NCBI GenBank assembly: GCA_035606075.1
Contig: DATNGC010000004.1
Location: 16,932 to 80,931 of the forward strand
DNA length: 64,000 nt
Reading direction: 5' to 3'
Source: Elusimicrobiota bacterium
GTDB lineage: Bacteria > Elusimicrobiota > Elusimicrobia > UBA1565 > UBA9628
Shown here: positions 8,117 through 52,565 of the stretch, piece after piece
How positions within the stretch are numbered: position 1 is the first letter of the stretch
Layout of the letters: each line of letters opens with the position of its first letter
Notes under the pieces: generated by a model
The model's input: only the letters and a program-made list of their open reading frames with translations
Database searches by the model: none
Told to the model about the DNA's origin: nothing
Translations under genes and position numbers: made by a program

Positions 8117-8146
8117 CGCGGGCCATACTACTATTTCGGCCGCCCC

Positions 8147-18633: not shown

Positions 18634-19368
18634 CTATGATTCCAGCTTGCCCGTCTTCCGATCCAGCCACACGGCTTTTCCGGACGGGATATCGCAATGA
18701 TCGCTCGCCAGTTCCAGGAATGCGGGAACGGCCTTTTCCGGAGTCTTGAGCGTCGCCGGATCCTCGCCGGCAACCGCCTCGGCGCGCATCTTCGTGCGCG
18801 TCGCGGTCGGGTTGACGGAATAAAAACGGATGCCCGCGTCCTTGCCCTCCTCGGCCCACGCCTGCGTGAGCCCCTCGAGCCCGAACTTGCTCGCCGCGTA
18901 AGGGCCCCAGCCCGCCGAGGCCTTGCGCCCCTGTCCCGAGGAGACGTTGATCACGCAGCCCCGGCGGGCGGCGAGCATGGAGCCCCGCAGGACCTCGCGC
19001 GTCACGTAGAAGGCGGAATTCAGATTGGCGGCAAGGACTTCGCTCCAGTCCGCGTCGGAGACCTCCGCCAGCGGCTTGATCGGCCCGAGGATGCCCGCGT
19101 TGTTGATGAGCACGTCGATGCGGCCGAGCTCCTTCACCCCGCCCGCGACGAACGCCGCGACCTGCGCGGAGACGGACACGTCGCAGCGCTCGGCCTTGAC
19201 CTTCGCGCCGAGCGCGCGCGCCTCGCCGGCGGCCGCCTCGAGCTCGGCCGGCGTCCGGCTGCACAGGAGGAGCGCGGCGCCCTCGCGCGCGAAGCCCAGC
19301 GCCAGCGCGCGGCCGATGCCCCGACCTGCGCCGGTGATCAGGACCGTCTTCCCCTCGAAGCGCTTCAC
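18634..19368 (-). CDS. Short-chain dehydrogenase/reductase (SDR)
   Basis: GTG start at 19366-19368 overlapping the upstream stop (GTGA). TVLITGAGRGIG is the Rossmann motif, NNAG is present, and YAASK holds the catalytic Y/K. Confidence 0.8.
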   Translation of the reverse strand: MKRFEGKTVLITGAGRGIGRALALGFAREGAALLLCSRTPAELEAAAGEARALGAKVKAERCDVSVSAQVAAFVAGGVKELGRIDVLINNAGILGPIKPLAEVSDADWSEVLAANLNSAFYVTREVLRGSMLAARRGCVINVSSGQGRKASAGWGPYAASKFGLEGLTQAWAEEGKDAGIRFYSVNPTATRTKMRAEAVAGEDPATLKTPEKAVPAFLELASDHCDIPSGKAVWLDRKTGKLES

Positions 19369-20612
19369 GACGCCTTCTCCTCGAGCCGCGAGGCGATGAC
19401 GTCGAGCGCGTGCGCGCAAAACAAGATCATGAAGGGCATCATCGGGAGACGATAGCGGATGATGGACCAAAATAACATATAGGTGAACGTGACGGAGAAC
19501 ACGGTGACGAGGAACAAATCCGCCTCCGGGTAGCGCCGTCCCGCGAGGAGCATCCCGACGAACCCCAGCGGGATGATCCAGCCGTCCGACAACAGCCCGA
19601 TCCATTTGATCAGCCGGTAGTGGAAGGCGTAGGCCCGCGCGTACGGATAGAGTCGCCACAGCTTCGCGAAGCTGCGCAGGACGAAGCCGGCGTACCGGGC
19701 CGGCTGTTCCCGGATGAAACGCAGCGCGCCGCGGTAGAACACGCGGTCGCGCTCGGTCTCGGGCAGCTTCGAGGCCTCCTGGACGACGGGGTCGCGCGTG
19801 ACGTAGCCCGGCTCGGCGTCGGTCCCCGCGACGTCGTTGGGGACAATGATGCCGATGTACATGTGCGCCCCGCCGCCGTTGATGCCGAGGATGAAGCGAT
19901 GGAAGAGACGCTCGTTCCGGACGGTCCAGACGGAGCACAGCGACAGCATCACCCCGAGATAGACGATGGCTCCTTTGAAGTGCTCCCGCTTGGTCCGCAT
20001 TCCAAGGCACACGATCGCCGGAGCCAGCATCAGGCCCGCCGGGAGCAGGGCGGAGTTCGTCAGCGCGCAGCCTCCCGCCGCGAGGCCGGGCCATGCCCAG
20101 GCCCGGAGCGAAGAGGAGCGGGCCGCGCGGAGGACCAGCCACACGGTGAAGGCGAGGAGGAACGTTTGGAAGGTTTCGCGCTCCTGAGTCGCCGTGTAGT
20201 ACAGAAATTGAGGATAGAACGTCGCGATCACGGCGGCGAGCCATGCGGTTCGCCTTCCGAAGATCTCACGGCCCAGCAGGAAGACCAGCGCGATCGTGAG
20301 CAATCCAAAGAGACAATTGATCGCCTGTCCGGCCCGATAGCTCGGTCCCGAGACGAGATACGCCGCCGCGAGAAGAACGGGGTAACCGGGCTCGCGCGCC
20401 GCGGTGGGATTGCCCGCGGGATCCGCGATGATGCCCCGGTGGTAGATGCTCTCGGCGATGGTCTCGTACCAGTTAAGGTCGGGGATGGAGCGGTTCGGGC
20501 CCCACTGCGGGAATTTCCAGCAGTAGGCCGCGCGCAGGACCAACCCCGCCAAGAGCAGCGCGGCGAGCCAGCGGCGCTCGCGCGAGGCCGGCGGCGCGGA
20601 TTCGTTCTTCAT
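19365..20612 (-). CDS. GT-C membrane glycosyltransferase of the ArnT/PMT_2 type (paralog of 9898-11151)
   Basis: 415 aa, polytopic. The AAREPGYPVLLAA loop motif matches its paralog. Confidence 0.6.
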   Translation of the reverse strand: MKNESAPPASRERRWLAALLLAGLVLRAAYCWKFPQWGPNRSIPDLNWYETIAESIYHRGIIADPAGNPTAAREPGYPVLLAAAYLVSGPSYRAGQAINCLFGLLTIALVFLLGREIFGRRTAWLAAVIATFYPQFLYYTATQERETFQTFLLAFTVWLVLRAARSSSLRAWAWPGLAAGGCALTNSALLPAGLMLAPAIVCLGMRTKREHFKGAIVYLGVMLSLCSVWTVRNERLFHRFILGINGGGAHMYIGIIVPNDVAGTDAEPGYVTRDPVVQEASKLPETERDRVFYRGALRFIREQPARYAGFVLRSFAKLWRLYPYARAYAFHYRLIKWIGLLSDGWIIPLGFVGMLLAGRRYPEADLFLVTVFSVTFTYMLFWSIIRYRLPMMPFMILFCAHALDVIASRLEEKAS

Positions 20613-23337: not shown

Positions 23338-24332
23338 TTGAGGAACCTGTCGCGGGCCCAAGGCAGAAGAGAGGACCGGCCGTAAAGGGCGTGCATCGTC
23401 AGATACGCGCGCGGCGAAGCGACCGCGAGCAGGAGCGTGGACAGCTTGAACGCGTTGAACGCCGAGGCCGGAAGCTCGCGCTTGAGCTCCGACCACGCGT
23501 CGAGGGCGCCGGACCTGTCGCCGCGCCAGCCGCGCAGGAGGATCACCTTCGTCATGCGGTCGAGGAGCTTGGCGCGGCGGCCTTCGGGAGGAAGGGTGCG
23601 GCCGTTCGCGCGCAGGCGGGCATCGAGCAAGGCTTCGAGCCGGGTCGAGATCGAGAGATAGCGCTCGAGACGATCGGCGCGCCAGTTCATGCCCTGGAAG
23701 GAGTTGGTCTCGTGGATGCGCAGGCCGCCCAATATGCCGGGAACGGTCCGTCCCGTCCCGAAGAACAAAATATGCTTCGAGACGTACTCGTCGGCGTACA
23801 GCTTCAAGTCCTCGGGAATCGGAGAGATCTTGTCGAGGGCGGAGCGGCGCACGGATACGCCCGAGGTCCCGATCAGGACGTCTCGGCCGGCGAGGACATC
23901 TTCGAGACGAATGCTCGCCGGCGGGAATGAGCGCGGCTGCGCGAGGGGCTTCCCGGAAACGTCCACTGGCTCCATCGCATTTTGAACGAATGAGGACTCG
24001 GGGTGAGCGGAGAACTCGGCGAGAACGGCCTTGATCTTACCGGGGTACCAAACGTCGTCCCCGTCCAAGAAACAAATGACCTCTCCCCTCGCTTCTCGAA
24101 CGGCCGCGTTGAAGGCGGCCGCTTGGCCGGCGTTCTTTTGGACGATCAACCGGGCGTCCGGCGCGCAGCGCCGGACCGCCTCCGCCGTCTTATCCGTAGA
24201 ACCATCGTCGACAACGATGAGTTCCCATGTTTTGCCGCCCCAATCTTGATCGCGGATGCTTTTAATGGCGGCCTCGACGTAGGGTTCATGGTTGTAGCAG
24301 TCCACCAGGGCGGTGACCGAAATGGAACCCAT
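23334..24332 (-). CDS. Family 2 glycosyltransferase
   Basis: 332 aa. GT2 motifs: VTALVDCYNHE, VVDDGSTDKT, FLDGDDVW. Confidence 0.8.
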   Translation of the reverse strand: MGSISVTALVDCYNHEPYVEAAIKSIRDQDWGGKTWELIVVDDGSTDKTAEAVRRCAPDARLIVQKNAGQAAAFNAAVREARGEVICFLDGDDVWYPGKIKAVLAEFSAHPESSFVQNAMEPVDVSGKPLAQPRSFPPASIRLEDVLAGRDVLIGTSGVSVRRSALDKISPIPEDLKLYADEYVSKHILFFGTGRTVPGILGGLRIHETNSFQGMNWRADRLERYLSISTRLEALLDARLRANGRTLPPEGRRAKLLDRMTKVILLRGWRGDRSGALDAWSELKRELPASAFNAFKLSTLLLAVASPRAYLTMHALYGRSSLLPWARDRFLK

Positions 24333-24356
24333 GGGTCAATTTACTATATTCCCCGC

Positions 24357-25316
24357 ATGTTGATGCCCTGCCCGCTGTGCGGCGGAACCGGTCCCAAGAC
24401 GCTGGTGCGCGAGCACGAAGGCTACCGCCTGTACGACTGCCCCGAGTGCGGGCTGGGCTACTGCGAGCCCTTCAAGAACCCCGGCCCCGAGTACTACGAG
24501 CACAACACCGATCAGTACTCCGTCGCGATCGAAGAGCGCACGGACCCCATGTCGTTCGAGTACGACGAGGCGCTCGCCTTTCTCGCCAAGAACCTTCCGC
24601 GCGGCGCGCGCCTGCTCGACGTCGGCTTCGGCACCGGCGGATTCCTGTTCCGGACCAAGGCGGCTGGATTCTCGGTCTCCGGCGTCGACTTCAACTCCGC
24701 GCGCGTCACGGCGCTCAAGTCGCGCGGCTTCGACGTGTTCGCCGGCGGGCTGCCGGATTTCGCCCGCCGGGCGCCGCCCGCTTCCTTCGACGCGATCACG
24801 ATGTTCGAGGTGATCGAGCACGTCGACGATCTCGGCGCATGGCTGGGCGCGGCCAAGTCCCTGCTCAAGCCCGGCGGCGTCTTCGTCGTGGGCGCGCCCA
24901 ACCGGAACCGCACCTTCGACCCCTTTCAGGGACCCGGCCTCGAGGCCATCGACAATCCCCCGCATCACCTGACGCGCTGGAGCGCGGCGTCGCTCTCCGG
25001 CGCGCTGACGCGCCACGGCTTCGAGGTGCTCGAAAGCCGCCCTCTCGGCTACCCCCTGCCGATGCTTCAACTGATCCTGCGTTATCGGCTCAGCTTCGGC
25101 ATGGCGCGGAAAGCGCTCAAGGTCGAGCAGGTCCGCTACGCGCCCTCCGGCAGCGCGGCGCCGGCCGGCTCGGGGCTCGTGAAGGCCTTGGTGGCGGCGA
25201 AGTCCGCGGCCATCGACGGCGCCGCCCGGCTCATCTATCCCTTCTTTCTCGCCGCGTACACGCTTTTCGGCTGGCAGGGCGTGCCGCTCATCGCGATCTC
25301 CCGGCGCCCGTCGTAG
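24357..25316 (+). CDS. SAM-dependent methyltransferase with an N-terminal zinc-ribbon domain
   Basis: The start was re-set to MLMPCPLCGG. A CPLCGG...CPECG zinc ribbon precedes VGFGTGGF (motif I). It is a paralog of the gene at 30603-31616. Confidence 0.7.
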   Translation: MLMPCPLCGGTGPKTLVREHEGYRLYDCPECGLGYCEPFKNPGPEYYEHNTDQYSVAIEERTDPMSFEYDEALAFLAKNLPRGARLLDVGFGTGGFLFRTKAAGFSVSGVDFNSARVTALKSRGFDVFAGGLPDFARRAPPASFDAITMFEVIEHVDDLGAWLGAAKSLLKPGGVFVVGAPNRNRTFDPFQGPGLEAIDNPPHHLTRWSAASLSGALTRHGFEVLESRPLGYPLPMLQLILRYRLSFGMARKALKVEQVRYAPSGSAAPAGSGLVKALVAAKSAAIDGAARLIYPFFLAAYTLFGWQGVPLIAISRRPS

Positions 25317-26526
25317 GAGCGATTTGCTTCCGCTTGCCGCGGAAGAAAGCCCGGAACTGCTCCACGACGTAATCCGCGTCGCCGGGCGTCATGTACTGGT
25401 GGCAGCCGATGTAGAAGCCCGAGCGGTTGAGCATCCGCGCCACGGGGTATTTCGGCTCGAGGTCGCCGAACAGCTTTTTATAGACCGGCTGATTCAAGAG
25501 CGGCAGCAGGTCGCGCGTCTCGACGCCGCGGTCCTCCAGGAAATTGACCAGCGCCGTCTTGTCCTCGCCGCGCAGGACGAGGCCGTAGAGCATGTGCGTG
25601 TGGTCGCGGTCGGGAGGGCACGTCGGCAGCTGCAGCCGGTCCTCGAACTCGCGCAGCGCGGCGGTCAGGCGGTTGGCCATGCCGACGCGCGCCTTCACGA
25701 TCGCGGACTTCTCCTCGAGCTGGGCGAGGCCGAGCGCCGCCTCGAGCTCGGTGGCGCGGAAGCTGTGGCCGACGGAGACGAACTGGAAGCGCTTGGCGAC
25801 GATCTCGTGCAGGCGCTTGCCGGCCGCGCCCGCGTCGTCGTCGATGGAGAGGTAGATCGAGTCGCGGCCGTGGTTCATCAGGCTGCGCAGGCGGATGTGC
25901 AGGTCCGGGTCGCTCGTCGTCGCCAGGCCGCCGACGCCGGTCACGATGTAGTGCGCGACGTACGTCGAGAAGCAGCCGATGTCGCCGAGCGAGCCGACTT
26001 TGCGCCCCTTGTAGCGCGCGAACATCGTCTCCGCCGAGTCCTCGACGATACGCAGGCCGTGCCTCACGGCGATCGCGCGGACCGGGTCCATGTCGGCGGG
26101 CAGGCCGAGGAGATGGACCGGCATGATCGCGCGGGTGCGCTTGGTCAGCTTGGCCTCGATCTTGAGCGGATCGATGTTGTACGTGAGCGGGTCCACGTCG
26201 ACGAACACGGGCGTCAGGCGGTTGTGGAGCACGACGTTGGACGTCGCGATGAAAGTGACGGCCGGGACCAGGACCTCGTCTCCGTCCCTCCAGCCGTATT
26301 TCTCCTTGAGCGCCTGGACCGCCAAGTGCAGGGCGCTGGTGCCCGAGTTGCAGAAGATGGCATGGCGGCTGTCGTGCTCGGCGGCGAACGCGGCCTCGAA
26401 GCGCCGGTGGAAAGGCCCGTAGGACAGACGGTTGGCGTCGAGCGCCTGCGTCACGTAGCGGCGCGCGCGCGGGCTGACGGCGAAGCCGCCGACCCCAATC
26501 TCGCGCCGCGGCCTCGCCGGTTTCAT
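25288..26526 (-). CDS. DegT/DnrJ/EryC1/StrS-family PLP-dependent sugar aminotransferase
   Basis: The start was re-set to the ATG at 26526 (MKPARPRREIG). The family signature is present: NSGTSALHLA, and the lysine region FSF in the HSFRATE context. The upstream part of the 947-aa track ORF is a shadow of the opposite-strand GT4 gene. Confidence 0.85.
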   Translation of the reverse strand: MKPARPRREIGVGGFAVSPRARRYVTQALDANRLSYGPFHRRFEAAFAAEHDSRHAIFCNSGTSALHLAVQALKEKYGWRDGDEVLVPAVTFIATSNVVLHNRLTPVFVDVDPLTYNIDPLKIEAKLTKRTRAIMPVHLLGLPADMDPVRAIAVRHGLRIVEDSAETMFARYKGRKVGSLGDIGCFSTYVAHYIVTGVGGLATTSDPDLHIRLRSLMNHGRDSIYLSIDDDAGAAGKRLHEIVAKRFQFVSVGHSFRATELEAALGLAQLEEKSAIVKARVGMANRLTAALREFEDRLQLPTCPPDRDHTHMLYGLVLRGEDKTALVNFLEDRGVETRDLLPLLNQPVYKKLFGDLEPKYPVARMLNRSGFYIGCHQYMTPGDADYVVEQFRAFFRGKRKQIAPTTGAGRSR

Positions 26527-26565
26527 CGCCCGCATTCTAGCGAAAAAATTGAGACAATACGCCCC

Positions 26566-27693
26566 GTGAGGATCGCGCTGGACGTCTCGGCCGCGCTCGA
26601 TGGGGCGAGCGGCATCGGCTTCTATATCGAACGGCTCACGGCTGCCCTGGCGTCCGCCGCCCCCGAGCGGGAGTTCGTGCTGACCTCGGCGTTCTGGCGC
26701 GGCGGCCGGCGCCTCGAGGACGCGGCTCTGCCCCGCGCGCGCAACGTCACCCGCGTCCGCTTCGCCGCCCCGCAGCGCCTGCTCCTGCCGGCCGAGGAGT
26801 TCGGCGGCCTCTCCTGGCGCGAGCGGCGCTTCCGGGCGCTGGGCGTGGACGCCGTCCACGGGCTCGGCAACGTCCTGCCGCCGCTGTCGAGGCTGCCCGG
26901 GATCGTGACCGTGCACCACGTCGGCGGCGGAGCGCCGCCGGGAGCATGGGCCGACTTTTTCTTCAATAAGCTTCCACGGCGTTCCGCCGAGCGCGCGGAC
27001 CGGGTCATCGCCGTGTCCGAGCGCACGCGCGCGGAGGCGCTCGCGGCCTGGGGCCTCGACCCGAGGCGAGTCCGCGCCGTGCACGAGGGCGGCCCCGACG
27101 CCGTGTTCCGGCCCGGCGGCGGTGCGCCCGGCGGCGCGCCCTACGTGCTCCACGTCGGCGGCCTTTCCGTGCGCAAGAACGTCCCCGCGCTCCTGCGCGC
27201 CTTCGGCGCGATCGTCGAGAAGAACCCCGCCCGCCCGCTGCGCCTGCTCCTCGCGGGCCGGCCCGGCGAGGCGTCGGCCGAGATCGCGCGGCTGTCCGCG
27301 GCGCCTCCCCTGGCTGGACGCGTCGAGCTCCTCGGCGAGGTGCCGCGCGAGAAGCTCGTCGCGCTGTACCAGGGCGCGGCGGCCGTCGCGATGCCGTCGC
27401 TCGTCGAAGGCTTCGGCTTCCCCGTCCTCGAGGCGATGGCGTGCGCCGCGCCGGTCGTCGCCGCCGACGCGGCCGCCCTGCCCGAGATCGCGGGCGGCGC
27501 CGCCCTGCTGTTCGATCCCGACGATCCGGACGGCCTGTCTCGGGCGCTCGCCTCGATACTCGACGATGCGGACCTGGCCGCCGACCTGCGCCGCCGCGGC
27601 GCGGCGCGAGCCGCGGCCTTTTCGTGGGAGAAGGCGGCGCGCGAGACCCTCGAGGTGATCGACGCCGCGCGGGCCGAGCGCCTGAAAAGCTAG
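26566..27693 (+). CDS. Family 4 (GT1-fold) glycosyltransferase
   Basis: GTG start at 26566 (VRIALDVS). The C-terminal EGFGFPVLEAMACAAPVV block is the GT4 E-x7-E motif. Confidence 0.8.
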   Translation: MRIALDVSAALDGASGIGFYIERLTAALASAAPEREFVLTSAFWRGGRRLEDAALPRARNVTRVRFAAPQRLLLPAEEFGGLSWRERRFRALGVDAVHGLGNVLPPLSRLPGIVTVHHVGGGAPPGAWADFFFNKLPRRSAERADRVIAVSERTRAEALAAWGLDPRRVRAVHEGGPDAVFRPGGGAPGGAPYVLHVGGLSVRKNVPALLRAFGAIVEKNPARPLRLLLAGRPGEASAEIARLSAAPPLAGRVELLGEVPREKLVALYQGAAAVAMPSLVEGFGFPVLEAMACAAPVVAADAAALPEIAGGAALLFDPDDPDGLSRALASILDDADLAADLRRRGAARAAAFSWEKAARETLEVIDAARAERLKS

Positions 27694-27702
27694 AATCGGA
27701 CC

Positions 27703-28314
27703 GTGCTCGAGTACGCGTTTCTGACCTTCGGTTCTTTGTTCGCGATCGTGGATCCCTTCGCGGCGATCCCGACGTTCCTCGCGCTCACGTCCAACGACAC
27801 CCCGGAGCAAAGGCGCTCCATGGCCCGCACCGCCTGCTTCATCTGCGCGGCCGTCATGTCCGTTTTCGCCGCGCTGGGGCCGGCGCTGTTCCGCCTGTTC
27901 GGGATCACTTTGCCCGCCTTCCAGGTCGCGGGCGGCCTCGTCCTGCTCCTCTCCGCGCTCGACATGATCCGCGCGCAGAAGTCCCCGCTCAAGGAGACCC
28001 CCGAGGAGTTCGCCGAGGGCATGAACAAGGACAGCATCGCGGTCACGCCGCTCGCGGTCCCCTTGCTCGCCGGCCCGGGGGCGATCACGACCTCGATCGT
28101 GCTCGGGCAGCGCGCCGCGACGCTCTGGCACAAGGCGGTGTTCTTCGCGCTGATCGGGCTCGTCGCCTTCGTGACCTATTGGACGCTGACGCTGGCCGCC
28201 GACAGCGCCAAGAAGTTCTCCCCGACGATCCTGAACATCATCACGCGCCTGATGGGCCTTCTGCTCGCGGCGATCGGCGTCCAGTTCATCCTGTCGGCGC
28301 TCAATCTCGGATGA
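27703..28314 (+). CDS. MarC-family integral membrane protein (UPF0056)
   Basis: 203 aa with about six TM helices. GTG start. Confidence 0.75.
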   Translation: MLEYAFLTFGSLFAIVDPFAAIPTFLALTSNDTPEQRRSMARTACFICAAVMSVFAALGPALFRLFGITLPAFQVAGGLVLLLSALDMIRAQKSPLKETPEEFAEGMNKDSIAVTPLAVPLLAGPGAITTSIVLGQRAATLWHKAVFFALIGLVAFVTYWTLTLAADSAKKFSPTILNIITRLMGLLLAAIGVQFILSALNLG

Positions 28315-30602: not shown

Positions 30603-31616
30603 GTGACCGAAGGCCCTCGAAAGCCCGCGTGCCCCGTGTGCGGCGCGCGCGAGACGAAGCCGGTCGAAAGCTGGCGCGACCCCGTGGCCGGCAAGGATTA
30701 CGTCCTGCTCGAGTGCGCGGGCTGCGCGCTCGTCTACGCCTGGCCCTTGCTCTTCCCCGGCGGCGAATGGTACGAGAAGTTCAACTACGTCGGCGGGTAC
30801 GACGAGACCGCCGCCCAGGCCAGCAAGACCGACTTCCCCTACTTCCTCGACCGCTTGCCGCGGCCCAACCGCGGCCGTTTCCTCGACGTCGGCTGCGCGG
30901 CGGGCCATTTCCTCCTCATGGCGAAGGCGCGCGGCTACGACGTCGAGGGCTTGGAGGTCGACGAGCGCTTCGTGAAGAAAGCGCACGACTTCGGGCTGAC
31001 CGGAGTGCGCAAGGGGCTCCTGGACGAGGACTTCGCCCGCGCGCACGCCGGAGCGTTCGACGTCGTGTCGATGCTCGAGGTGCTCGAGCACGTCGACGAC
31101 CCGCGCGGCTTCCTGAATCTCGCCGGGCGGGTCTTGAAGCCGGGCGGCCGCTTGGTCGTGGCCGTTCCCGACAACCGCCGGCCGACGCCGTTCGGCCGCG
31201 ATTACTTCGATTATCCGCCGCATCATCTGACGCGCTGGAAACCGCGCGCGCTGCGGCTGGCGCTGGAGAGCGCCGGACTTCGCGTGGACGACGTCCACGC
31301 CAAGCCGCTCCCCGTCGTCGACTTGTCCCGGATTTGGGCGGACCGGTCGGCGCAGACGATCCTGCGTCTCATCAAGCGGGTCCGCTACGGCCGCGCCGCG
31401 GCGGCGCGATCGATGGACGAGATCGCGGCCGCGGAGGCGGCGGCGGGGCGGCCGAACGTCCTCCCCGACAAGGCCGCGCGCCTGAAGCTGGTCTACTTCT
31501 ACCACTCCGTCTTCAACGCGGCCAGCTACCCCTTCTTCGGCCTGATGACGCTGTATTACCGGCTGACGCGGCCCGGCATGGGGCACACGCTGCTGGCCGT
31601 CGCCCGCAAGGACTGA
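30603..31616 (+). CDS. SAM-dependent methyltransferase with an N-terminal zinc-ribbon domain (paralog of 24357-25316)
   Basis: GTG start. A CPVCGA...CAGCA ribbon precedes LDVGCAAGHF (motif I). Confidence 0.7.
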   Translation: MTEGPRKPACPVCGARETKPVESWRDPVAGKDYVLLECAGCALVYAWPLLFPGGEWYEKFNYVGGYDETAAQASKTDFPYFLDRLPRPNRGRFLDVGCAAGHFLLMAKARGYDVEGLEVDERFVKKAHDFGLTGVRKGLLDEDFARAHAGAFDVVSMLEVLEHVDDPRGFLNLAGRVLKPGGRLVVAVPDNRRPTPFGRDYFDYPPHHLTRWKPRALRLALESAGLRVDDVHAKPLPVVDLSRIWADRSAQTILRLIKRVRYGRAAAARSMDEIAAAEAAAGRPNVLPDKAARLKLVYFYHSVFNAASYPFFGLMTLYYRLTRPGMGHTLLAVARKD

Positions 31617-31629
31617 CGGAGCCGCCCGG

Positions 31630-33123
31630 TCAGGCCTTGGCGAACCAGCGGATCACGCCGCGCGTGTCCTCCTCCGGCAGGGCGCGCCACGCCAGCCCGA
31701 GATACGCAAGGCCCGCGGCGGCATTGACCGCCAGGAACCCCGGCCAGGTCCACGCCCAGCCGCGGAGAAGCCACGCGACCAGGACGAGCGCGCCCGTCGG
31801 CGGGACAAGCGGGCCCGCGATCTCGCGCAGGAAGCGCCCCCAGGACAATTGGATGAGGTGACGGTGCGTCGCGTCCAGGAAATAAAGGGTCGCGGCGGCC
31901 TGCGCGACGAGCGCGCCGGCCGCCGCTCCGGCGATCCCCCAGCGCGGGATGAGGAACGGCCAAAGCGCGAGGCAGATCAGCGCCTGGCCCCACATCGCCA
32001 CCGAATTGTAATGCCCTCCGTCGAGGCCGCCGGCGGCCGCCTTGGGCCCGAGGAAGACGATCGCGAACGTCTGCTCGACGACGAGAAGGCGCGCGGCCAC
32101 CTCCGCGCTCTTGCCGAAGGCGGGGTTGATCCATAGCCCGAGCAGCTGCGGCATCAGCACGAAGAGCAGCCCGAGCGCGGGCGCGAGCAGGGCGAAGAGC
32201 GCGCGCACGGAGCGCACGTACACCCGCGCGAGATGCTCCTTGCCCTCGACGCGGCCGACCTCGCTGAGCACCGGCATCAGCGCCGTGGAGATCATCGCGG
32301 ACGGCGTCTGCAGGCGATCGAGGACGCCCGACGGCACCGAGTAGTAGGTCAGCTCCGACATGCTGAGCTTGCCCGCGACGAAGATCTTGTCGAGCTGGGA
32401 GGAGACCAAGTTGGCGAGCACGCCCGGCATGAAGGTGAGCCCGTAGCGGAAGAACGGTTTGAACGCGAGGCGGCCCTTCGTGCCGCGATGCCGGGCCATG
32501 GCCGCGCGCAGCGCCAATCCGAGAAAGAGGAAGCCGCTCGCCTGCACGACGACGTACCACGCCGCCGCCGCCCCGAGGCCGCGCCCCATCGCCAGCACCG
32601 CGACCAGCCCGAGCGGCATCAGGATCGACTGCAGGAGCGCGAGCGCCGACGGCGCCGCGAGCCTCTGCAATCCCCAGAACGCCGCCGAGGCCCATTGAGC
32701 TCCGGCGGCGAACAATCCGCCGAGGGCGGCCGCGCGCAGGAGCCAGAACGCATGCACGCGGTAGTAGTCCGGGATGTCGAAGGTCGAGCGCGACAAGGGC
32801 CCCGCGGCCAGCCACAGCGCCGCCGAGGCCGCGCCCACGCCCAGGAAGTGGATCCAGAACGAATGCCGCAGCGCGTCGCGCAGGGCGCCGTCCTCTCCTG
32901 CCGCCTGCGCCTCGGCGACGTACTTGACCGTCGCCGTGCCGGCGCTGAACTGGAACAGGGACAGATAGTTGGCGACCGTGTACATCAGCAGGTACACGCC
33001 GTAGGCTTCGGTGCCGAACCCGCGCAGGAGATACGGCAGCGTGAAGAAATTGACGAGGATGGTGCCCGCCTGTCCGGCCAGGCTCCAGCTCACGTTGCGC
33101 GCGAAGCGACGCCCTCGGCTCAT
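31630..33123 (-). CDS. Wzx-like oligosaccharide flippase (MOP/polysaccharide biosynthesis protein family)
   Basis: 497 aa with about 12-14 TM helices; topology and N-terminal region are typical of Wzx. Confidence 0.65.
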   Translation of the reverse strand: MSRGRRFARNVSWSLAGQAGTILVNFFTLPYLLRGFGTEAYGVYLLMYTVANYLSLFQFSAGTATVKYVAEAQAAGEDGALRDALRHSFWIHFLGVGAASAALWLAAGPLSRSTFDIPDYYRVHAFWLLRAAALGGLFAAGAQWASAAFWGLQRLAAPSALALLQSILMPLGLVAVLAMGRGLGAAAAWYVVVQASGFLFLGLALRAAMARHRGTKGRLAFKPFFRYGLTFMPGVLANLVSSQLDKIFVAGKLSMSELTYYSVPSGVLDRLQTPSAMISTALMPVLSEVGRVEGKEHLARVYVRSVRALFALLAPALGLLFVLMPQLLGLWINPAFGKSAEVAARLLVVEQTFAIVFLGPKAAAGGLDGGHYNSVAMWGQALICLALWPFLIPRWGIAGAAAGALVAQAAATLYFLDATHRHLIQLSWGRFLREIAGPLVPPTGALVLVAWLLRGWAWTWPGFLAVNAAAGLAYLGLAWRALPEEDTRGVIRWFAKA

Positions 33124-33165: not shown

Positions 33166-34212
33166 CTACGGGGCCAGGTACAGCTCAGGGCAGTTCCGAC
33201 AGAGCGGGTTCTTCACGTCGTTGTCGAGGAACTCTCGACGGAGCCGCTGCATCTCCGGGCCGTTCCACATCTCGTCGATCTTCTGGTTCTTGACGTCGCC
33301 GAGAACGTACTTCTTGTCGTAGTCGTAGCAGCACGGCACCACGCAGCCGTCCCAGGAAACGCTCACCTTCTCCCATGGGACGTTGCAGACGACCTTGCGG
33401 GTCTTTTGGAGCTCGGCGTTGTCGACCTTCGCGTCGGCGAGGCGGTTGACGTCGGCCGCGTCGCCGTTCCAGACCTTGAACTCCTTCGCCGCGAACTCGT
33501 CGATGCCGGGGAGGGCCTCCCAATATCTCCGCAGCTGCTCGATGCTGTCGCGGTTCATGGCGAAATCGATCATGCCCAAGGCGACGTGGGTCTTGCTCCC
33601 CAGCTCGATCTTCAGCTTCAAGAACTCGAGCAGATTGCTCTTGGACTTCTCGTAGGCGTCCTTGACCCCGCGGATCTTGTAGAACGACTCGTCGTCGTGG
33701 CCGTCGAGCGCGATGTTCAGGAACGCGATCCCGGATTCGAGCAGGTCGCGGGACACGGACGGCTTGAGCAGCAAGGGATTGATCGAGAGCCCGGTGCGCA
33801 GGCCCTTGGAGACCGCGTAGCGAATGAACTTCCCGAACTCCGGATGCACGAGGCTCTCGCCGAACTGATGCAGCCAGGTGATCTCCTCGGCGGCCGCCCG
33901 CGGGTTGGCCGAGGCGTATTCGTCGACGATGGTCTTGAACGTCTCGAAATCCATCACGCCTTCCGCGCGCGTCATGTTGTTGGTGCGCGCGCACATGATG
34001 CATTTGAAGGGACAGCGGTTGGTCAGCTCGAGGTTGAAGAGGGTCCAGCGTTCGTCCGTGACGGCGGCGCGCCGGTCGATCTTGCGCGCGCGGCGCCAAT
34101 TCCGGTATCGATCCAGGCCCTTTCGAGCCGAAGGATGCCTGTCGATGAATCGATGAACGGCGTTCTTTAAGTCGAGGATCATGGGAGACCGAAGGCGGAG
34201 GGGGCCGGCCAT
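33166..34212 (-). CDS. Radical SAM enzyme with a C-terminal SPASM domain
   Basis: CPFKCIMC is the CxxxCxxC radical-SAM cluster motif. A Cys-rich C-terminus (CNVPW...CVVPCCYDYD...CRNCPE) indicates a SPASM auxiliary cluster domain. The alternative start MILDLK lies 10 codons in. Confidence 0.75.
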   Translation of the reverse strand: MAGPLRLRSPMILDLKNAVHRFIDRHPSARKGLDRYRNWRRARKIDRRAAVTDERWTLFNLELTNRCPFKCIMCARTNNMTRAEGVMDFETFKTIVDEYASANPRAAAEEITWLHQFGESLVHPEFGKFIRYAVSKGLRTGLSINPLLLKPSVSRDLLESGIAFLNIALDGHDDESFYKIRGVKDAYEKSKSNLLEFLKLKIELGSKTHVALGMIDFAMNRDSIEQLRRYWEALPGIDEFAAKEFKVWNGDAADVNRLADAKVDNAELQKTRKVVCNVPWEKVSVSWDGCVVPCCYDYDKKYVLGDVKNQKIDEMWNGPEMQRLRREFLDNDVKNPLCRNCPELYLAP

Positions 34213-34287
34213 CCACTATAATCCCGTTGGCGGCGCATGTCAAGGGCGCGGCCGCCTCGCCCGAATCTTGCTACTGTATTGCCGAAA

Positions 34288-35208
34288 ATGAAGAATTTGG
34301 CCGCCCGGACCTTCGCTTGGCTCGTCGAACGGCTTCCGGCGCGCTTCCGAGAGCGGATGTTCCTGGCCTGCGCCGCCTCGCTCGGGGTCGAATCGTTCGT
34401 CGTGACCGGAAAGCTGGGCGAGTTCGAAGGCGGAATCCGCGACCGGATGGTCCATGGGGCCTACCTCCAGGATCGGACTTGGGCCCCCGCCCTGCAGGAG
34501 GTCCTGGCGGACCGGCTGTTCCGGAAAGGGGAGGGCGCGTACATCGACGTCGGCGCCAACATCGGCCTGACGACCATCCCCCTGGCGCGCGCGCGACACG
34601 TCGAATGCCACGCGTTCGAACCCGAGGCGCGCAACAACGCCTTCCTCCGCAAGAACGTCATCGCCAACCGGGTGGGCGACCGGGTGCGCACCTATGATTT
34701 CGCGCTGAGCGACGCGGACGCAGAGCTGGTCTTCGAGCTCGCGTCCGACAACATGGGCGATCATCGGGTCCGCGCCGCGGGCCCCGCCGAAGTCCGGACC
34801 GGTGAGCCGAACCGTTACGGCGAGCATTTGCGGGAGACCACGGTGGTCCAAGGCCGGCGGCTCGACGGGATCCTCGACGTCTCGACGCTGCGGCGGCCGT
34901 TGGTCATGAAGCTGGACGCGCAAGGCTCCGAGGTCAAAGCCCTCCGGGGAGCGCCGCGCTTGCTCCACGAATTGGACGCGCTGATCGTCGAGTTCTGGCC
35001 GTACGGTCTGCGCCGCTTGGGAGATTCACCGGAAGAACTCATCGAGCTCGTGCGAGGATTCCCGTTCGGAGCCGTTTTGAGCGGGCCCGAGGCCGCTGCC
35101 GGCCTGCGGCCGGCGGAAGAAGCGCTGGCTCTCATGCGGGCATTGGGCGAGCGGAAGGACGACCCAGGCTGGCTGGACGTGGTCTTCACCCGGACCCAGA
35201 CTTGGTAG
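34288..35208 (+). CDS. FkbM-family methyltransferase
   Basis: Start taken at MKNLAARTF. IDVGANIGLTT is the FkbM motif I. An upstream in-frame extension to 34237 is possible. Confidence 0.65.
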   Translation: MKNLAARTFAWLVERLPARFRERMFLACAASLGVESFVVTGKLGEFEGGIRDRMVHGAYLQDRTWAPALQEVLADRLFRKGEGAYIDVGANIGLTTIPLARARHVECHAFEPEARNNAFLRKNVIANRVGDRVRTYDFALSDADAELVFELASDNMGDHRVRAAGPAEVRTGEPNRYGEHLRETTVVQGRRLDGILDVSTLRRPLVMKLDAQGSEVKALRGAPRLLHELDALIVEFWPYGLRRLGDSPEELIELVRGFPFGAVLSGPEAAAGLRPAEEALALMRALGERKDDPGWLDVVFTRTQTW

Positions 35209-35219
35209 GATAGCGCGCG

Positions 35220-35960
35220 ATGACGCTCCCGACCGAAGACTATCGCGAGGTCCTGCGCCGCCGATATTCCGAGTTCCACGCGCAGGCCGCCGCGAACCCG
35301 CCGTCGGCGGAGCTCTTCGCCTATTACGACCGCGTTTACCGCCTGACGTTCGGGCCGCTCCTGCCGGCCGACCGGAACGCGGCCGTCTTCGAGCTCGGCT
35401 GCGGGACCGGCTCCTTCCTCCATTACCTCCGCTCGGCGGGCTACCGGAACGTCACGGGCGTGGACAGCGACGAATCCTCGATCGCCGCGGCCAAGAAGCT
35501 CGGAGTCGAGGGAGCCGAGGCCGGCGACGCCTACGAGCGGCTTTCGCGCGAGAAGGGCTCCTATGACGCCGTCGTCGCCATCGACGTGCTCGAGCATTTC
35601 CGCAAGGACGAGCTGTTCCCCCTTCTGCGCGCCATGCACGGAGCGCTTCGCCCCGGCGGCGTCGTGATCTGGCGCGTCCCGAACGCGGCGGGACCGTTCT
35701 TCGGCCGCATCCGCTATGGCGACCTGACCCACGAGAACGCCTTCACGCGGCTGAGCGCCCATCAGGCGCTGACGGCGGCCGGGTTCGACTCGGTGGAGTC
35801 CCGCGGCGAGAAGCCGGTCGTGACGGGAGCGCGAAGCCTTCTGCGCGCGGCCCTGTGGGCCGGGATCGTCCTGCTCGCGCGGGTCTATCTCTTCGCCGAA
35901 TCCTTCGAGACCGCGCCGATCCTCGAGCCGAACCTGCTCGTCCGCGCCCGCCGGCCCTAG
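35220..35960 (+). CDS. Class I SAM-dependent methyltransferase
   Basis: 246 aa. FELGCGTGSF is motif I. Confidence 0.75.
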   Translation: MTLPTEDYREVLRRRYSEFHAQAAANPPSAELFAYYDRVYRLTFGPLLPADRNAAVFELGCGTGSFLHYLRSAGYRNVTGVDSDESSIAAAKKLGVEGAEAGDAYERLSREKGSYDAVVAIDVLEHFRKDELFPLLRAMHGALRPGGVVIWRVPNAAGPFFGRIRYGDLTHENAFTRLSAHQALTAAGFDSVESRGEKPVVTGARSLLRAALWAGIVLLARVYLFAESFETAPILEPNLLVRARRP

Positions 35961-36718
35961 GCCGGCTTCACCGCGTACACGAGCGCGACGCCCTGGGTGA
36001 GCCCGTCGACGTGGGACGGCACGTCCCGCAGCCGCTCCTCCGGAACCTCGACCCACGCGGCCTGCTTTTCTCCGTGGAAGAAGCGCTTCTCGCGGACCTC
36101 GAATCCCTCGATCAGCCGGGCCAAGCCGGCCGAGTCGTAGACGCGATAGCCCGGGTTCTGTCCGGCGAGGCCGAACGGGACGGTCAGCAAGAGCGCTCCG
36201 CCGGGCTTGAGGACCTTCAGGAACTTGCGGAGGAGGACCCGGTCGCCGGACTCGCGCGAGTCCCCGCCGTAGGCCTCGAGGCCGCAATGCTCCACCGCGG
36301 AGACGGCGACGACGGCGTCGAAGGAATTCTCCGGGACGTCCTTCTCCAGAAAATCTCCGCGCAGCAGCTCGAAATTGGGGTGAGCGTGGCCGTACTCGCG
36401 CAGGTCGGCGCCGACGACGCGGTAGCCCATCGCCGCCAGCTCGAGGGCGAGCGGGCTGTTGCTGCAGCCGAAGTCGAGGACTCTCGCGCCCGGCAGGGAC
36501 GCGAGCTTCTGCAGGACGAAAGGCATCTCGACGATCCGCTCGTTGACGGCGGGCGCGAGGAAGCGCCGCTTGAGGCGCAGCCACGGGATGCGCCACACCC
36601 AGGCGCGCGCGCGCGGGCTCAACTGCTGGTCGGGCGCCTGCTGGATCGGGGCGATGATCGACGTCAGGTACAACGGCGACTCGGCCGGCGTGAAGAGCAG
36701 CTTCAGGAACCGGAGCAT
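35957..36718 (-). CDS. Class I SAM-dependent methyltransferase
   Basis: The start was re-set to the ATG at 36718 (MLRFLKLLF). VLDFGCSNSPL is motif I. The remainder of the 423-aa track ORF is an out-of-frame Arg-rich extension. Confidence 0.65.
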   Translation of the reverse strand: MLRFLKLLFTPAESPLYLTSIIAPIQQAPDQQLSPRARAWVWRIPWLRLKRRFLAPAVNERIVEMPFVLQKLASLPGARVLDFGCSNSPLALELAAMGYRVVGADLREYGHAHPNFELLRGDFLEKDVPENSFDAVVAVSAVEHCGLEAYGGDSRESGDRVLLRKFLKVLKPGGALLLTVPFGLAGQNPGYRVYDSAGLARLIEGFEVREKRFFHGEKQAAWVEVPEERLRDVPSHVDGLTQGVALVYAVKPA

Positions 36719-38646
36719 AGGCCTCCGGCGTGAGCGTGCTCGGCCGCCGGTCCCGCGGCGTGGCGGTGCCACAGCTCCAGCATCAGCAGGGCCCAGAGGC
36801 GGTAGCCGTTGTCGCGGCCGCCGGCTTGGTGGGCGTTCCAGAGCTCGCGCAGGCCCTTCTCCGTGAAGTACCCGCGGGCCAGCGCATCCTTCGACAGCAC
36901 GTGATCGGCCCAGTAATCCTTGAGCGGCCCGCGGAACCACGCGCCCAGCGGGATGCCGAAACCCATCTTCTTGCGCGCGAGGATCTCCGGCGGCAGGAGG
37001 TCCTTGAAGGCCTCCTTGAAGATCCATTTGTGGCCGGTCAAGCCCTTGAGCTTCCAGTCGCCGGGCATGCGGTAGGCGAGCTCGACGAACTCGTGGTCGA
37101 GCAGCGGCGAGCGCCCCTCGAGCGAGCAGGCCATCGTGGCCACGTCGACCTTGGCCATGAGGCACTCGGGCAGGTACGTCTTGAAGTCGACGTAGAGCAT
37201 GCGGTTGACGAAGTCCTCGCCCCGGCACGCGTCGAAGGCGCGCGCGAGGTAGTTCTTGGCGCCGCCCACGTCGCCGCCGAGCGCCTTCATGAACTCCGGC
37301 GAGTACAGCGCGGGCTTCTCGTCCTCGGCGAAGTAGCCGATCATCTTGAGATGGCGGCCGGGCAGGTCGTTGAACAAGGCCGAGCGCAGGAAACGCTTGG
37401 TCCGCCAGAGCTTGCCGTGCGGCGCGTCGAACTCGGGCAGGAGCTCGGCGCCGGCCTTGAGCGCGGCGAGCGCGGGCTTGGGCAGAAGGTCCGAGACGCG
37501 CGCGGGCTTCATCGCGAAGTAGCGCACGTAGCCGGCGAAGTTCTCGTCGCCGCCGTCGCCGTTGAGGGCGACGGTGACGAATTTACGCGTCTCACGGGAC
37601 ACGTAGTACGTCGGAAGCGCGGATGCGTCTGCGTAGGGTTCTCCGTAATGCCAGGCCAGTTTGGGAAGCACGTCGGCCATTTGCGGCTTCACGATGAACT
37701 CAGTGTGATCGGTCTTATATCGATCAGCCACCATCTTCGCGAAGTGCGCTTCGGAGAAGCGTTCTTCGTCGAACCCGATCGAGAAAGTCTTCACCGGCTT
37801 CGACGAGAGCCGGCTCATCAAGGCGACGATGATGGAGGAATCGATGCCGCCGGACAGGAAGGCGCCGAGCGGGACGTCCGAGATCATGCGCAGCTTGACC
37901 GATTCGGTGAGCTTCTCGCGCAGCAGCCGCTTGGCTTCCTCGACGTCCGTCGTGACGGGCTCTTGTCCCAGCGGGAGATCCCAATATCTTTCGACGGTCG
38001 TCTTGCCGTTCTCCCACGTCAGAGAATGACCGGGCGGGAGCTTCTTGACCGATTTATAGATCGTGCCGGGCGACGGGATGTACTGCAAGGCCAGATACAC
38101 GTCGACCGCGCGAGGCTCCACATCACGAGGCAGATTCGGGTCGAGCGCGAAGAGACACCGGAGTTCCGATCCGAAGACAAGCGTGCCGCCGGGGCGCTCC
38201 GCGTAGACCAGCGGCTTCTTGCCGACGCGGTCGCGAGCGATGAACAGCCGCTGCTTCTTCTTGTCCCAGATCGCGAAGGCGAACATGCCGCGCAGCTTGC
38301 TCACGCAGGCCGCCCCCATCTCTTGATATAGGGCGAGGATCGCTTCCGTATCGGATTGCGTCTTGAGGCGGTGCCCGCGAGAGAGAAGCTCTTCGCGCAA
38401 GGACTGATAGTTATAGATCTCCCCGTTGAAGACGATCCATAGGCTATCGTCGGCGTAAGATAGCGGCTGATGCCCTGTATTGAGATCGATGATGGCCAAC
38501 CGCCGCATCGCGAGCGCGACGGGACCGTCGATATAGAATCCCTCGTCGTCCGGACCGCGATGGGCGATCAGGTCGTTGGCGTTCTTAAGGCGCGCCCGAT
38601 CGGGCGCCCGGCCCCGGCCCTCGACGACGCCGCAGATGCCGCACAT
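36703..38646 (-). CDS. asnB: Asparagine synthase (glutamine-hydrolysing) family amidotransferase
   Basis: 647 aa. MCGI is the N-terminal nucleophile Cys of the GATase-II domain, and SGGIDSS is the PP-loop of the synthetase domain. Confidence 0.9.
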   Translation of the reverse strand: MCGICGVVEGRGRAPDRARLKNANDLIAHRGPDDEGFYIDGPVALAMRRLAIIDLNTGHQPLSYADDSLWIVFNGEIYNYQSLREELLSRGHRLKTQSDTEAILALYQEMGAACVSKLRGMFAFAIWDKKKQRLFIARDRVGKKPLVYAERPGGTLVFGSELRCLFALDPNLPRDVEPRAVDVYLALQYIPSPGTIYKSVKKLPPGHSLTWENGKTTVERYWDLPLGQEPVTTDVEEAKRLLREKLTESVKLRMISDVPLGAFLSGGIDSSIIVALMSRLSSKPVKTFSIGFDEERFSEAHFAKMVADRYKTDHTEFIVKPQMADVLPKLAWHYGEPYADASALPTYYVSRETRKFVTVALNGDGGDENFAGYVRYFAMKPARVSDLLPKPALAALKAGAELLPEFDAPHGKLWRTKRFLRSALFNDLPGRHLKMIGYFAEDEKPALYSPEFMKALGGDVGGAKNYLARAFDACRGEDFVNRMLYVDFKTYLPECLMAKVDVATMACSLEGRSPLLDHEFVELAYRMPGDWKLKGLTGHKWIFKEAFKDLLPPEILARKKMGFGIPLGAWFRGPLKDYWADHVLSKDALARGYFTEKGLRELWNAHQAGGRDNGYRLWALLMLELWHRHAAGPAAEHAHAGGLCSGS

Positions 38647-51504: not shown

Positions 51505-51523
51505 GGCTTCTCCGTTCCCCTCG

Positions 51524-52563: not shown

Positions 52564-52565
52564 GG

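Follow-up and report, generated by a model that had tools for sequence, protein, structure and literature searches.

A twitch-type radical SAM enzyme encoded in a surface-glycan locus of an Elusimicrobiota bacterium, a candidate for sugar tailoring

To our knowledge, nearly all carbohydrate-acting radical S-adenosylmethionine (SAM) enzymes described so far (BtrN, DesII, BlsE, NeoN and HygY) belong to antibiotic pathways, and our literature search found no biochemical precedent for such enzymes in primary cell-surface glycan loci. Here we analyze a radical SAM gene located in the glycan locus of a 64,000-nucleotide stretch of DNA (the window) from an Elusimicrobiota bacterium (contig DATNGC010000004.1), and compare its product with the described systems. 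BtrN, the 2-deoxy-scyllo-inosamine (DOIA) dehydrogenase of the butirosin pathway (PDB 4M7T), pairs a CxxxCxxC motif with a C-terminal twitch domain, in which four cysteines ligate a single auxiliary cluster; in its reaction an electron is lost to this cluster, giving a ketone (PMC9012708). DesII (a TDP-4-amino-4,6-dideoxyglucose lyase; 8HZV/8HZY) and BlsE (a cytosylglucuronate decarboxylase; 7VOB) use nucleotide-linked sugars as substrates. Two sugar epimerases, NeoN and HygY, and one peptide epimerase, EpeE, are also of the twitch type, and in these enzymes a cysteine outside the clusters hands a hydrogen atom back to the radical formed on the substrate, the donors being the non-ligand residues C249 in NeoN (PMC10991966) and C223 in EpeE (PMC13012085); the title of the former paper further announces a latent dehydrogenase activity of HygY that appears when one cysteine is mutated (PMC10991966). 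The anaerobic sulfatase-maturating enzyme (anSME; 4K36-4K38), PqqE, SuiB and CteB share with the protein described here the radical SAM core and the first half of the SPASM domain (a CX9-15GX4C hairpin), but anSME and other full-SPASM maturases carry a seven-cysteine SPASM domain with two auxiliary clusters, the second half of which the window protein does not have.

On the basis of its sequence, we assign the window gene to the carbohydrate-acting kind of twitch-type radical SAM enzymes, as an uncharacterized member. We lean towards the view that it encodes a cytoplasmic enzyme that tailors a sugar of the polysaccharide made by the surrounding locus before this polysaccharide is flipped by Wzx. 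For the window alone this is a modest refinement of the annotation (twitch rather than full SPASM, sugar-type rather than peptide maturase). The wider interest lies in the family to which the protein belongs, whose gene is wired into O-antigen, exopolysaccharide (EPS) or lipooligosaccharide (LOS)-type loci in many bacteria, including the cultured genera Azospirillum, Nitrospirillum and Terasakiella.

Domain architecture and nearest solved relatives

The radical SAM gene is real and intact. An open reading frame (ORF) at 33166-34212 on the minus strand had been called in an earlier reading of the DNA letters without database searches (hereafter the sequence-only reading), and we find this ORF in place, with a G+C content at third codon positions (0.90) like that of the other genes of the window (GC 65-72%) and with two Pfam domains, a Radical_SAM core and a C-terminal SPASM match (Table 1). 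Cysteines are numbered here in the 338-residue form of the protein, and their conservation was scored in an alignment of 36 diverse homologues and then in 234 full-length relatives aligned to the family profile. The CxxxCxxC motif noted earlier is read directly from the sequence as CPFKCIMC, whose first two cysteines, C57 and C61, are kept in 234/234 relatives and whose third, C64, is kept in 233/234. The core also includes an FGES motif of the GGE type, and G108 is invariant.

The sequence-only reading had further described a cysteine-rich SPASM C-terminus, a description that stands in part. The region is indeed rich in cysteines and is called SPASM by Pfam (residues 276-342 of the 348-residue ORF, 65.7 bits against a cut-off of 21.5, E 4.7e-18, with all 67 model positions matched), but the TIGRFAM SPASM model TIGR04085 reaches only 24.6 bits, under its cut-off of 27, and covers model positions 1-67 of 93. 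The protein terminates 7 residues past the CxxC, and the CX2CX5CX3C...C half of the seven-cysteine SPASM motif (CX9-15GX4C-gap-CX2CX5CX3C-gap-C) is missing. Six cysteines are present in the C-terminal region of the window protein, one of which, in a DGC sequence, is not conserved, so that exactly five remain as conserved positions across the 234 relatives: C284 in all of them, C266, C328 and C331 in 233 or 234 (99.6-100%), and C285 in 226 (about 97%). No other cysteine occurs in this region in 208 of the 234. When aligned with HMMER, C266, C284, C328 and C331 fall on C169, C188, C232 and C235 of BtrN, whose twitch domain aligns over the same stretch as the Pfam SPASM match. Because these are the four auxiliary-cluster ligands of BtrN, and because the second SPASM half is absent, the alignment identifies the C-terminal domain as a truncated SPASM, that is, a one-cluster twitch of the BtrN type. 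The two proteins also have D287, W306 and R315 of the twitch domain in common. The second cysteine of the CC pair, C285, has a phenylalanine as its counterpart in BtrN, making it a spare residue and a candidate catalytic thiol that would not serve as a cluster ligand.

Searches of solved structures point to the same enzymes. The family profile gave ten matches at E<=1e-3, headed by BtrN (E 5e-22, over both domains) and then DesII (3e-8), with further matches including GDGT-MAS (4e-6), BlsE (4e-5) and PqqE (6.5e-4), and a single-sequence search of the PDB likewise returned BtrN, DesII and BlsE as its best matches. An AlphaFold2 model built on the alignment (predicted local distance difference test score, pLDDT, 93.8; predicted template modeling score, pTM, 0.88) consists of alternating strand and helix elements, preceded by 45 N-terminal residues that form two helices and are variable or, in many relatives, absent. 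Foldseek placed BtrN at the top of the PDB entries (E 1.3e-10; template modeling score 0.74 on the target) and DesII and BlsE next; SkfB, MoaA, SuiB, CteB and anSME (17th) ranked below BlsE, as did EpeE, and all 50 matches listed were radical SAM enzymes. The three nearest solved enzymes thus all act on carbohydrates or cyclitols. Classification with hidden Markov models, a check that the sequence-only reading had proposed, agreed with the twitch type and brought no NCBIfam model near its cut-off (best score 86.8 against 380); the family is not captured by any curated model or name.

Membership in the families of these neighbors was considered and rejected. The window protein is not a BtrN orthologue (a DOIA dehydrogenase): the two are 16% identical, about 80 barrel residues of the window protein are absent in BtrN (which leaves profile positions 178-259 without a match), the window protein has in addition an N-terminal helical extension that is optional in the family, and a 2-deoxystreptamine pathway context is lacking. 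BtrN converts an aminocyclitol in an antibiotic pathway, whereas the window gene sits in a Wzx/Wzy-type surface-glycan locus. The likeness to DesII and BlsE, the second and third structural neighbors, is restricted to about 110-150 residues of the core, and the scores against the corresponding NCBIfam equivalogs are so far under the cut-offs (30.6 versus 450 for DesII and 25.1 versus 400 for BlsE) that the window protein lies outside both families.

Genomic contexts of the family

The glycan locus of the window spans approximately 5.4-49.3 kb and encodes family 2 glycosyltransferases (GT2), a DegT aminotransferase, a sugar C-methyltransferase, a UDP-N-acetylglucosamine (UDP-GlcNAc) 2-epimerase, three Wzy_C proteins and eight methyltransferases. 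The closest genome relatives of the window are metagenome-assembled genomes labeled Elusimicrobiota. The loci of the two closest relatives of the radical SAM gene, L001 (74% identity) and L011 (68%), are syntenic with the window in Wzx, AsnB, three orthologous methyltransferases, MarC, a GT4 glycosyltransferase and DegT; the methyltransferase at 35220-35960 is among the genes whose orthologues recur in both (phmmer 373-400 bits). Directly upstream of the radical SAM gene and on the same strand, these two loci carry genes for an MBOAT protein and a 404-423-residue protein (L001 5236-7963; L011 5210-7967) where the window has the divergent FkbM gene. The 404-residue protein has no Pfam match and no sequence relative in the PDB. 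A Dlt-like MBOAT module was examined as a candidate partner and discarded, as tblastn found no homologue of either the MBOAT or the 404-residue protein in the window.

An exhaustive search with the family profile retrieved 2,069 clusters (50% identity) at E<=1e-30. A word-indexed search returned 282 homologues, and the 120 listed among them were unnamed or bore a generic "radical SAM/SPASM" label; literature searches that paired radical SAM with O-antigen, SPASM, FkbM, glycan or nucleotide sugar turned up no work on the family. Eighty loci from species-representative genomes are distributed over Elusimicrobiota, Omnitrophota, Alpha-, Gamma- and "Delta"-proteobacteria, Spirochaetota, Chloroflexota, Verrucomicrobia, Nitrospirota, Acidobacteriota, two archaea and others, including the cultured genera named above, and a cyanobacterial member (Phormidesmis, L006) was added from a separate contig look-up. 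In this cyanobacterium the radical SAM gene (8001-9107) lies between wzm and wzt, ahead of genes for a 622-residue methyltransferase and a 1,473-residue multi-glycosyltransferase, and in Terasakiella brassicae (L039, 7605-8915) it adjoins wzt. This layout, found in two unrelated lineages with export dependent on an ATP-binding cassette (ABC) transporter, resembles that of chain-terminating modification systems. One nucleotide-sugar cluster combines the family gene with a hexapeptide acyltransferase, a methyltransferase, an aminotransferase, an FkbM gene and a CMP-sugar synthetase, and a plasmid cluster of A. oryzae contains GT4, a NodS-like methyltransferase, a sulfotransferase, a TPR protein, the radical SAM gene and FkbM.

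Gene fusions and immediate neighbors widen this picture. Fused forms include GT8, GT9, methyltransferase and radical SAM domains in one protein, a methyltransferase-radical SAM-methyltransferase-polysaccharide deacetylase arrangement, FkbM domains on either side of the radical SAM domain, a hexapeptide acyltransferase joined to the radical SAM domain (two proteins), and a radical SAM domain followed by a C-terminal AMP-binding, acyl-adenylate-forming domain (at least three representatives: P0174, P0195 and P0160); the last group hints that some members work with activated carboxylic acids. An FkbM-like gene is found immediately downstream in 12 loci and, in addition, in L064 and L016, in 8 loci of gammaproteobacteria an AT3 acyltransferase gene overlaps its stop codon, and an SGNH/GDSL protein is encoded downstream in 6 loci.

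More distant paralogues provide a parallel. Plasmid pBHWA1 of Brachyspira hyodysenteriae carries five of them in tandem (L092, 10855-16105), which score 103-126 bits against the family profile, are about 25-27% identical to the window protein, have the same C...PC(C)...CxxC architecture and lie amid rfbABCD, rfbF and glycosyltransferase genes. The first cysteine of the PC(C) element is kept in 5/5, and the residues that follow it are C, C, C, A and Y, so that two of the five do without the second cysteine. The radical SAM genes of this plasmid are regarded as probable LOS or glycosylation genes, and partial loss of the block correlates with reduced pathogenic potential (PMC4267127). The block is a precedent for the context, not an explanation of it, and it appears to be a natural series by which reaction types could be told apart. 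For another locus, that of A. lipoferum Sp59b, the published O-polysaccharide of galactose, rhamnose and mannose contains nothing that demands radical chemistry, and the radical SAM locus may serve another glycan there.

Several observations weigh against a role in glycan tailoring. The identity to BtrN is low, at the 16% given above. A recognizable glycan-type gene lies within 8 kb in only 40/84 species loci, a lower bound from a phmmer census of low sensitivity, and the remaining loci have mixed, housekeeping-like surroundings that show no theme, with 173 Pfam families in 135 neighboring ORFs and few acyl-metabolism genes. Seven loci of Spirochaetota share a conserved, housekeeping-like context of a Na/Pi-cotransporter and adenylosuccinate lyase. 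A conserved pair of radical SAM and FkbM genes was considered and rejected, as the FkbM partners are not detectably similar by BLASTP, save for a weak match to L007; being non-orthologous, they support the FkbM association only at the level of the domain family. Clustering of the neighbors across the 84 loci yielded no single conserved partner gene, the most frequent being GT4 (16 loci) and DegT (13 loci). Since about half of the family lies outside recognizable glycan loci, we infer the glycan substrate rather than read it from a family-wide pattern. The glycan assignment is good for the window and for the relatives closest to it; it is not established family-wide, given the lack of a universal partner, the non-orthologous FkbM genes, the count of 40/84 and the heterogeneity of the rest.

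Sugar tailoring and its alternatives

The sequence-only reading had offered two explanations, an unusual radical modification of a sugar or glycolipid and an anSME-like maturase acting on a secreted substrate. The first is the better supported, with BtrN, DesII and BlsE as nearest solved enzymes and with fusions and neighbors of the glycan type. Of the three candidate reactions that had been named for it (epimerization, dehydration and C-methylation), C-methylation comes last in likelihood, since the protein has neither a cobalamin nor a HemN-type module.

By analogy with characterized radical SAM enzymes, the favored sugar-tailoring reaction would begin with reductive cleavage of SAM at the CxxxCxxC cluster, and the resulting 5'-deoxyadenosyl radical would abstract a hydrogen atom from a sugar C-H bond. 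The sugar would most likely be a residue of the undecaprenyl-diphosphate-linked repeat unit, and less likely a nucleoside diphosphate (NDP)-sugar. From the substrate radical two routes can be envisaged: either Cys285 would quench it on the opposite face to yield an epimer, as in NeoN, HygY and EpeE, or an electron would be lost to the auxiliary cluster to yield a keto-sugar, as in BtrN. The product could then be decorated by the neighboring O-methyl or acyl transferases, or the substrate could itself be the product of these transferases. Because iron-sulfur enzymes are cytoplasmic, the enzyme is placed in the cytoplasm, and this location together with its probable co-transcription with the flippase gene suggests action before flipping, on a lipid-linked unit or an NDP-sugar. 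A late stage is favored for two reasons: the enzymes with which it is paired or fused are themselves late-stage tailoring enzymes, and the substrates of the known radical SAM sugar epimerases, NeoN and HygY, are pseudo-oligosaccharides that have already been assembled, not nucleotide sugars.

If the substrate is a glycan, epimerization would be the likeliest single outcome, somewhat short of an even chance; dehydrogenation would be a little less probable, and about as probable as all other outcomes together (dehydration, deamination, decarboxylation, and C-C or methyl-group chemistry). The slight preference for an epimerase over a dehydrogenase is one that we infer from the roughly 97% conservation of C285 and from the Brachyspira paralogues, in which the second cysteine varies and the first is kept. 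Such variation fits what is expected of a non-ligand, function-defining residue. The family has a spare, highly conserved cysteine beside an auxiliary-cluster ligand, which may be comparable to the donor cysteines of NeoN and EpeE. The substrates of NeoN, HygY and EpeE are aminoglycoside intermediates or a ribosomal peptide and not a cell-surface polysaccharide, and the analogy may indicate a possible way of working, not family membership.

A bolder extension, which we put forward only tentatively and regard as rather doubtful, is that the window gene is the founding example of a large, phylum-spanning radical SAM family that performs late-stage, O2- and NAD-independent C-H chemistry on lipid-linked surface polysaccharides, for example epimerization of a sugar residue already built into the chain, with the spare cysteine of the CC pair as hydrogen donor. 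We know of such late-stage tailoring so far only for antibiotic pseudo-oligosaccharides and peptides. Under this proposal the residue at the second cysteine position would decide whether a paralogue is an epimerase or a dehydrogenase, as the pBHWA1 series hints. The CC motif would provide a simple handle on the reaction outcome. If the enzyme does tailor surface glycans, this would explain sugar configurations or oxidation states beyond the reach of the usual NAD-dependent nucleotide-sugar enzymes, improve the prediction of glycan structures from gene clusters, and make sense of the block of radical SAM genes that the Brachyspira hyodysenteriae plasmid carries and whose loss accompanies reduced pathogenic potential.

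The alternative that survives best is that the substrate is not a sugar but an acyl, lipid or small-molecule compound, for example an activated acyl or aminoacyl group later moved by AT3, MBOAT, SGNH or hexapeptide acyltransferases, in which case the position in a glycan locus would reflect a shared decoration pathway or mere co-location. The AMP-binding (acyl-adenylate ligase) fusions described above speak for such a substrate, as does the prominence of AT3 acyltransferases, the commonest immediate neighbor family (9/131), next to which GDSL/SGNH, hexapeptide and MBOAT neighbors also occur. Genes for FadB-like proteins and acyl-CoA dehydrogenases recur nearby in loci of gammaproteobacteria and spirochaetes, the non-glycan loci include genes for AMP-binding proteins, thiolase and acetyl-CoA hydrolase, and the half of the family that lies outside glycan loci is readily accommodated. 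However, fatty-acid genes are common everywhere, so that their proximity to the family gene may be due to chance, and the window itself contains neither homologues of the MBOAT, AT3-like, SGNH or hexapeptide partners (tblastn) nor, in the ORFs scanned, an AMP-binding domain. The solved enzymes nearest to the protein, each of which acts on a carbohydrate or cyclitol, and the fusions to glycosyltransferases and a polysaccharide deacetylase argue for glycans instead, and we consider an acyl or lipid substrate unlikely.

A second alternative keeps the glycan substrate but assigns to the enzyme methyl-group chemistry in concert with an adjacent or fused methyltransferase, for example converting an O-methyl group by a radical route or methylating an unactivated carbon, in contrast to epimerizing or oxidizing a ring carbon. 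FkbM and class I methyltransferases are the most recurrent fusion partners (P0130, P0132, P0156, P0232, P0252 and P0262), an FkbM-like gene directly follows the radical SAM gene in at least 14 loci, and the window locus encodes eight methyltransferases. Yet the methyltransferase partners are mutually non-orthologous, and many members have an acyltransferase partner or none; the protein lacks a cobalamin-binding domain, a HemN-like second SAM site and an RlmN/Cfr-type cysteine pair where it would be expected, and its fold and profile neighbors are a dehydrogenase, a lyase and a decarboxylase, with no methylases. Consistent with this, radical SAM methylases of class A (RlmN/Cfr), class B (cobalamin) or class C (HemN-like) were found neither among the Pfam and NCBIfam matches listed nor among the 50 fold matches listed. 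We therefore give this alternative little credence.

Finally, the broader reading that takes in the second explanation of the sequence-only reading, namely a maturase of peptides or proteins (an anSME-like formylglycine synthase or else a radical SAM enzyme for ribosomally made peptides that are modified post-translationally, RiPPs, with the substrate encoded elsewhere), is largely refuted and in our view very improbable: the Pfam label SPASM, weak and partial NCBIfam matches to metalloenzyme and RiPP maturases (mainly over the core and far under cut-off) and the presence of SkfB, SuiB, CteB, anSME and EpeE in the lower part of the fold list speak for it, but the conserved cysteines suffice for one cluster only, CX2CX5CX3C is missing from the truncated domain, and close homology to anSME was seen neither by profile (anSME is absent from the matches at E<=1e-3 and from the 25 best NCBIfam matches) nor by fold. 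A RiPP recognition element (RRE) or PqqD-like domain was not found either, the N-terminus being the two helices described above and Pfam reporting only Radical_SAM and SPASM, and no sulfatase domain was detected in the ORFs scanned across the 64-kb window. The earlier remark that no precursor peptide is evident proved correct, as the gaps flanking the gene (42 bp and 54-105 bp) leave no space for a precursor gene. Moreover, a search of 81 loci for small ORFs no more than 600 bp from the gene yielded none that is conserved across the family, and the clusters of small ORFs that did emerge were lineage-restricted shadows of neighboring genes.

Gene model and surroundings in the window

The true start of the radical SAM gene is probably M11, because a database protein of 338 residues is 100% identical and all close homologues are 337-339 residues long. 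A near-consensus promoter on the minus strand is predicted from its match to the sigma-70 consensus, with TTGACA at 34243-34238, a 17-nt spacer and TATAGT at 34220-34215 (11/12, versus 0.2 +/- 0.4 in shuffles). Transcription from it would begin at about 34208, downstream of the ATG at 34212, and this would exclude that ATG as the start codon. The TATAAT box that the sequence-only reading had placed at 34224-34229 in fact lies at 34217-34222, where it overlaps the -10 element of the minus-strand promoter match. The gene is separated by 42 bp from wzx and by 54-105 bp from the FkbM gene, and given the promoter match, the 42-bp spacing and the convergent orientation of the next gene (30603-31616, plus strand), radical SAM and wzx probably form a two-gene transcription unit. 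The identities previously given to the two flanking genes, a Wzx flippase and an FkbM methyltransferase, agree with their Pfam and TIGRFAM matches (Table 1).

Table 1. The radical SAM gene, its sequence elements and its immediate neighbors (window coordinates)
Feature	Coordinates	Strand	Basis and remarks
Wzx/MOP-family flippase	31630..33123	-	Pfam Polysacc_synt 59.8 bits and Polysacc_synt_3; 42 bp downstream of the radical SAM gene
Radical SAM/twitch-domain enzyme, coding sequence	33166..34182	-	338 residues from M11 (probable start); ORF reaches an ATG at 34212 (348 residues)
C-terminal auxiliary-cluster domain (predicted), C266-x12-G-x4-C284-C285 ... C328-x2-C331	33187..33387	-	Pfam SPASM; cysteine pattern
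Invariant CC pair C284-C285	33328..33333	-	C284 aligns on BtrN ligand C188, C285 on a BtrN Phe
Radical_SAM core (PF04055)	33583..34029	-	Pfam, residues 62-210 of the 348-residue ORF; 55 bits, cut-off 29.5, E 1.5e-14
CPFKCIMC (CxxxCxxC), C57/C61/C64 in 338-residue numbering	33991..34014	-	Predicted ligands of the SAM-binding [4Fe-4S] cluster
Sigma-70-like promoter match (predicted), TTGACA-17-TATAGT, directed into the radical SAM gene	34215..34243	-	Consensus match
FkbM methyltransferase, divergent neighbor	34237..35208	+	PF05050 43.1 bits, TIGR01444 78.8 bits; start possibly ATG 34288
Class I SAM methyltransferase, 246 residues, after FkbM	35220..35960	+	Pfam Methyltransf_23/12/25/11

Beyond these immediate neighbors, the genes to the right encode another methyltransferase, an amidotransferase of the AsnB type and the UDP-GlcNAc 2-epimerase, and those to the left of wzx encode a methyltransferase, the DegT aminotransferase, GT2 enzymes and the sugar C-methyltransferase. 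The eight SAM-dependent methyltransferase genes of the locus are located at 16692-17915 (C-methyltransferase type), 17926-18630, 24003-25316, 30603-31616, 34237-35208 (FkbM), 35220-35960, 35957-37228 and 42002-43345 (with a Trm112p-like domain), and their number predicts an unusually heavily methylated glycan. Three Wzy_C proteins of the O-antigen polymerase/ligase type are encoded on the minus strand at 5447-8116, 11120-12832 and 47853-49313, one of them fused to TPR repeats, and two PMT_2 (ArnT-like GT-C) glycosyltransferases are encoded at 9898-11151 (plus strand) and 19365-20612 (minus strand); more than one glycan may be made by this region, or several acceptors may be glycosylated by it.

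Two features within the locus concern its gene calls and composition. A 947-residue ORF at 25288-28131 (minus strand) has its DegT domain in residues 557-926 only, and because its long N-terminal extension overlaps the well-supported MarC gene (27703-28314, plus strand), the DegT start is probably about 1.6 kb further in. Between the AsnB-type and UDP-GlcNAc 2-epimerase genes lies a DUF3800 ORF (38935-39666, minus strand), and GC in the segment 38001-40000 is 0.547, versus approximately 0.67-0.72 around it; this low-GC patch may be foreign DNA that was inserted into the locus.

The glycan locus is abutted by a type IV pilus cluster (49321-54257, minus strand) with a PilQ-type secretin bearing an AMIN domain (49321-51504), PilM (53112-54257) and three small ORFs between these two. 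Further to the right, the segment 54582-61663 (plus strand) carries genes for a HAD hydrolase, a MobA-like nucleotidyltransferase, a class III aminotransferase, a CDP-alcohol phosphatidyltransferase and, in addition, a myo-inositol-1-phosphate synthase, and looks like a pathway for an inositol-phosphate lipid or solute. This inositol-type cluster is 20 kb from the radical SAM gene, and BtrN acts on an inosamine; we claim no connection between the two. To the left of the glycan locus, two adjacent ORFs on the minus strand (1791-3776 and 3763-5472) encode paralogous metallopeptidases of the PmbA/TldD type.

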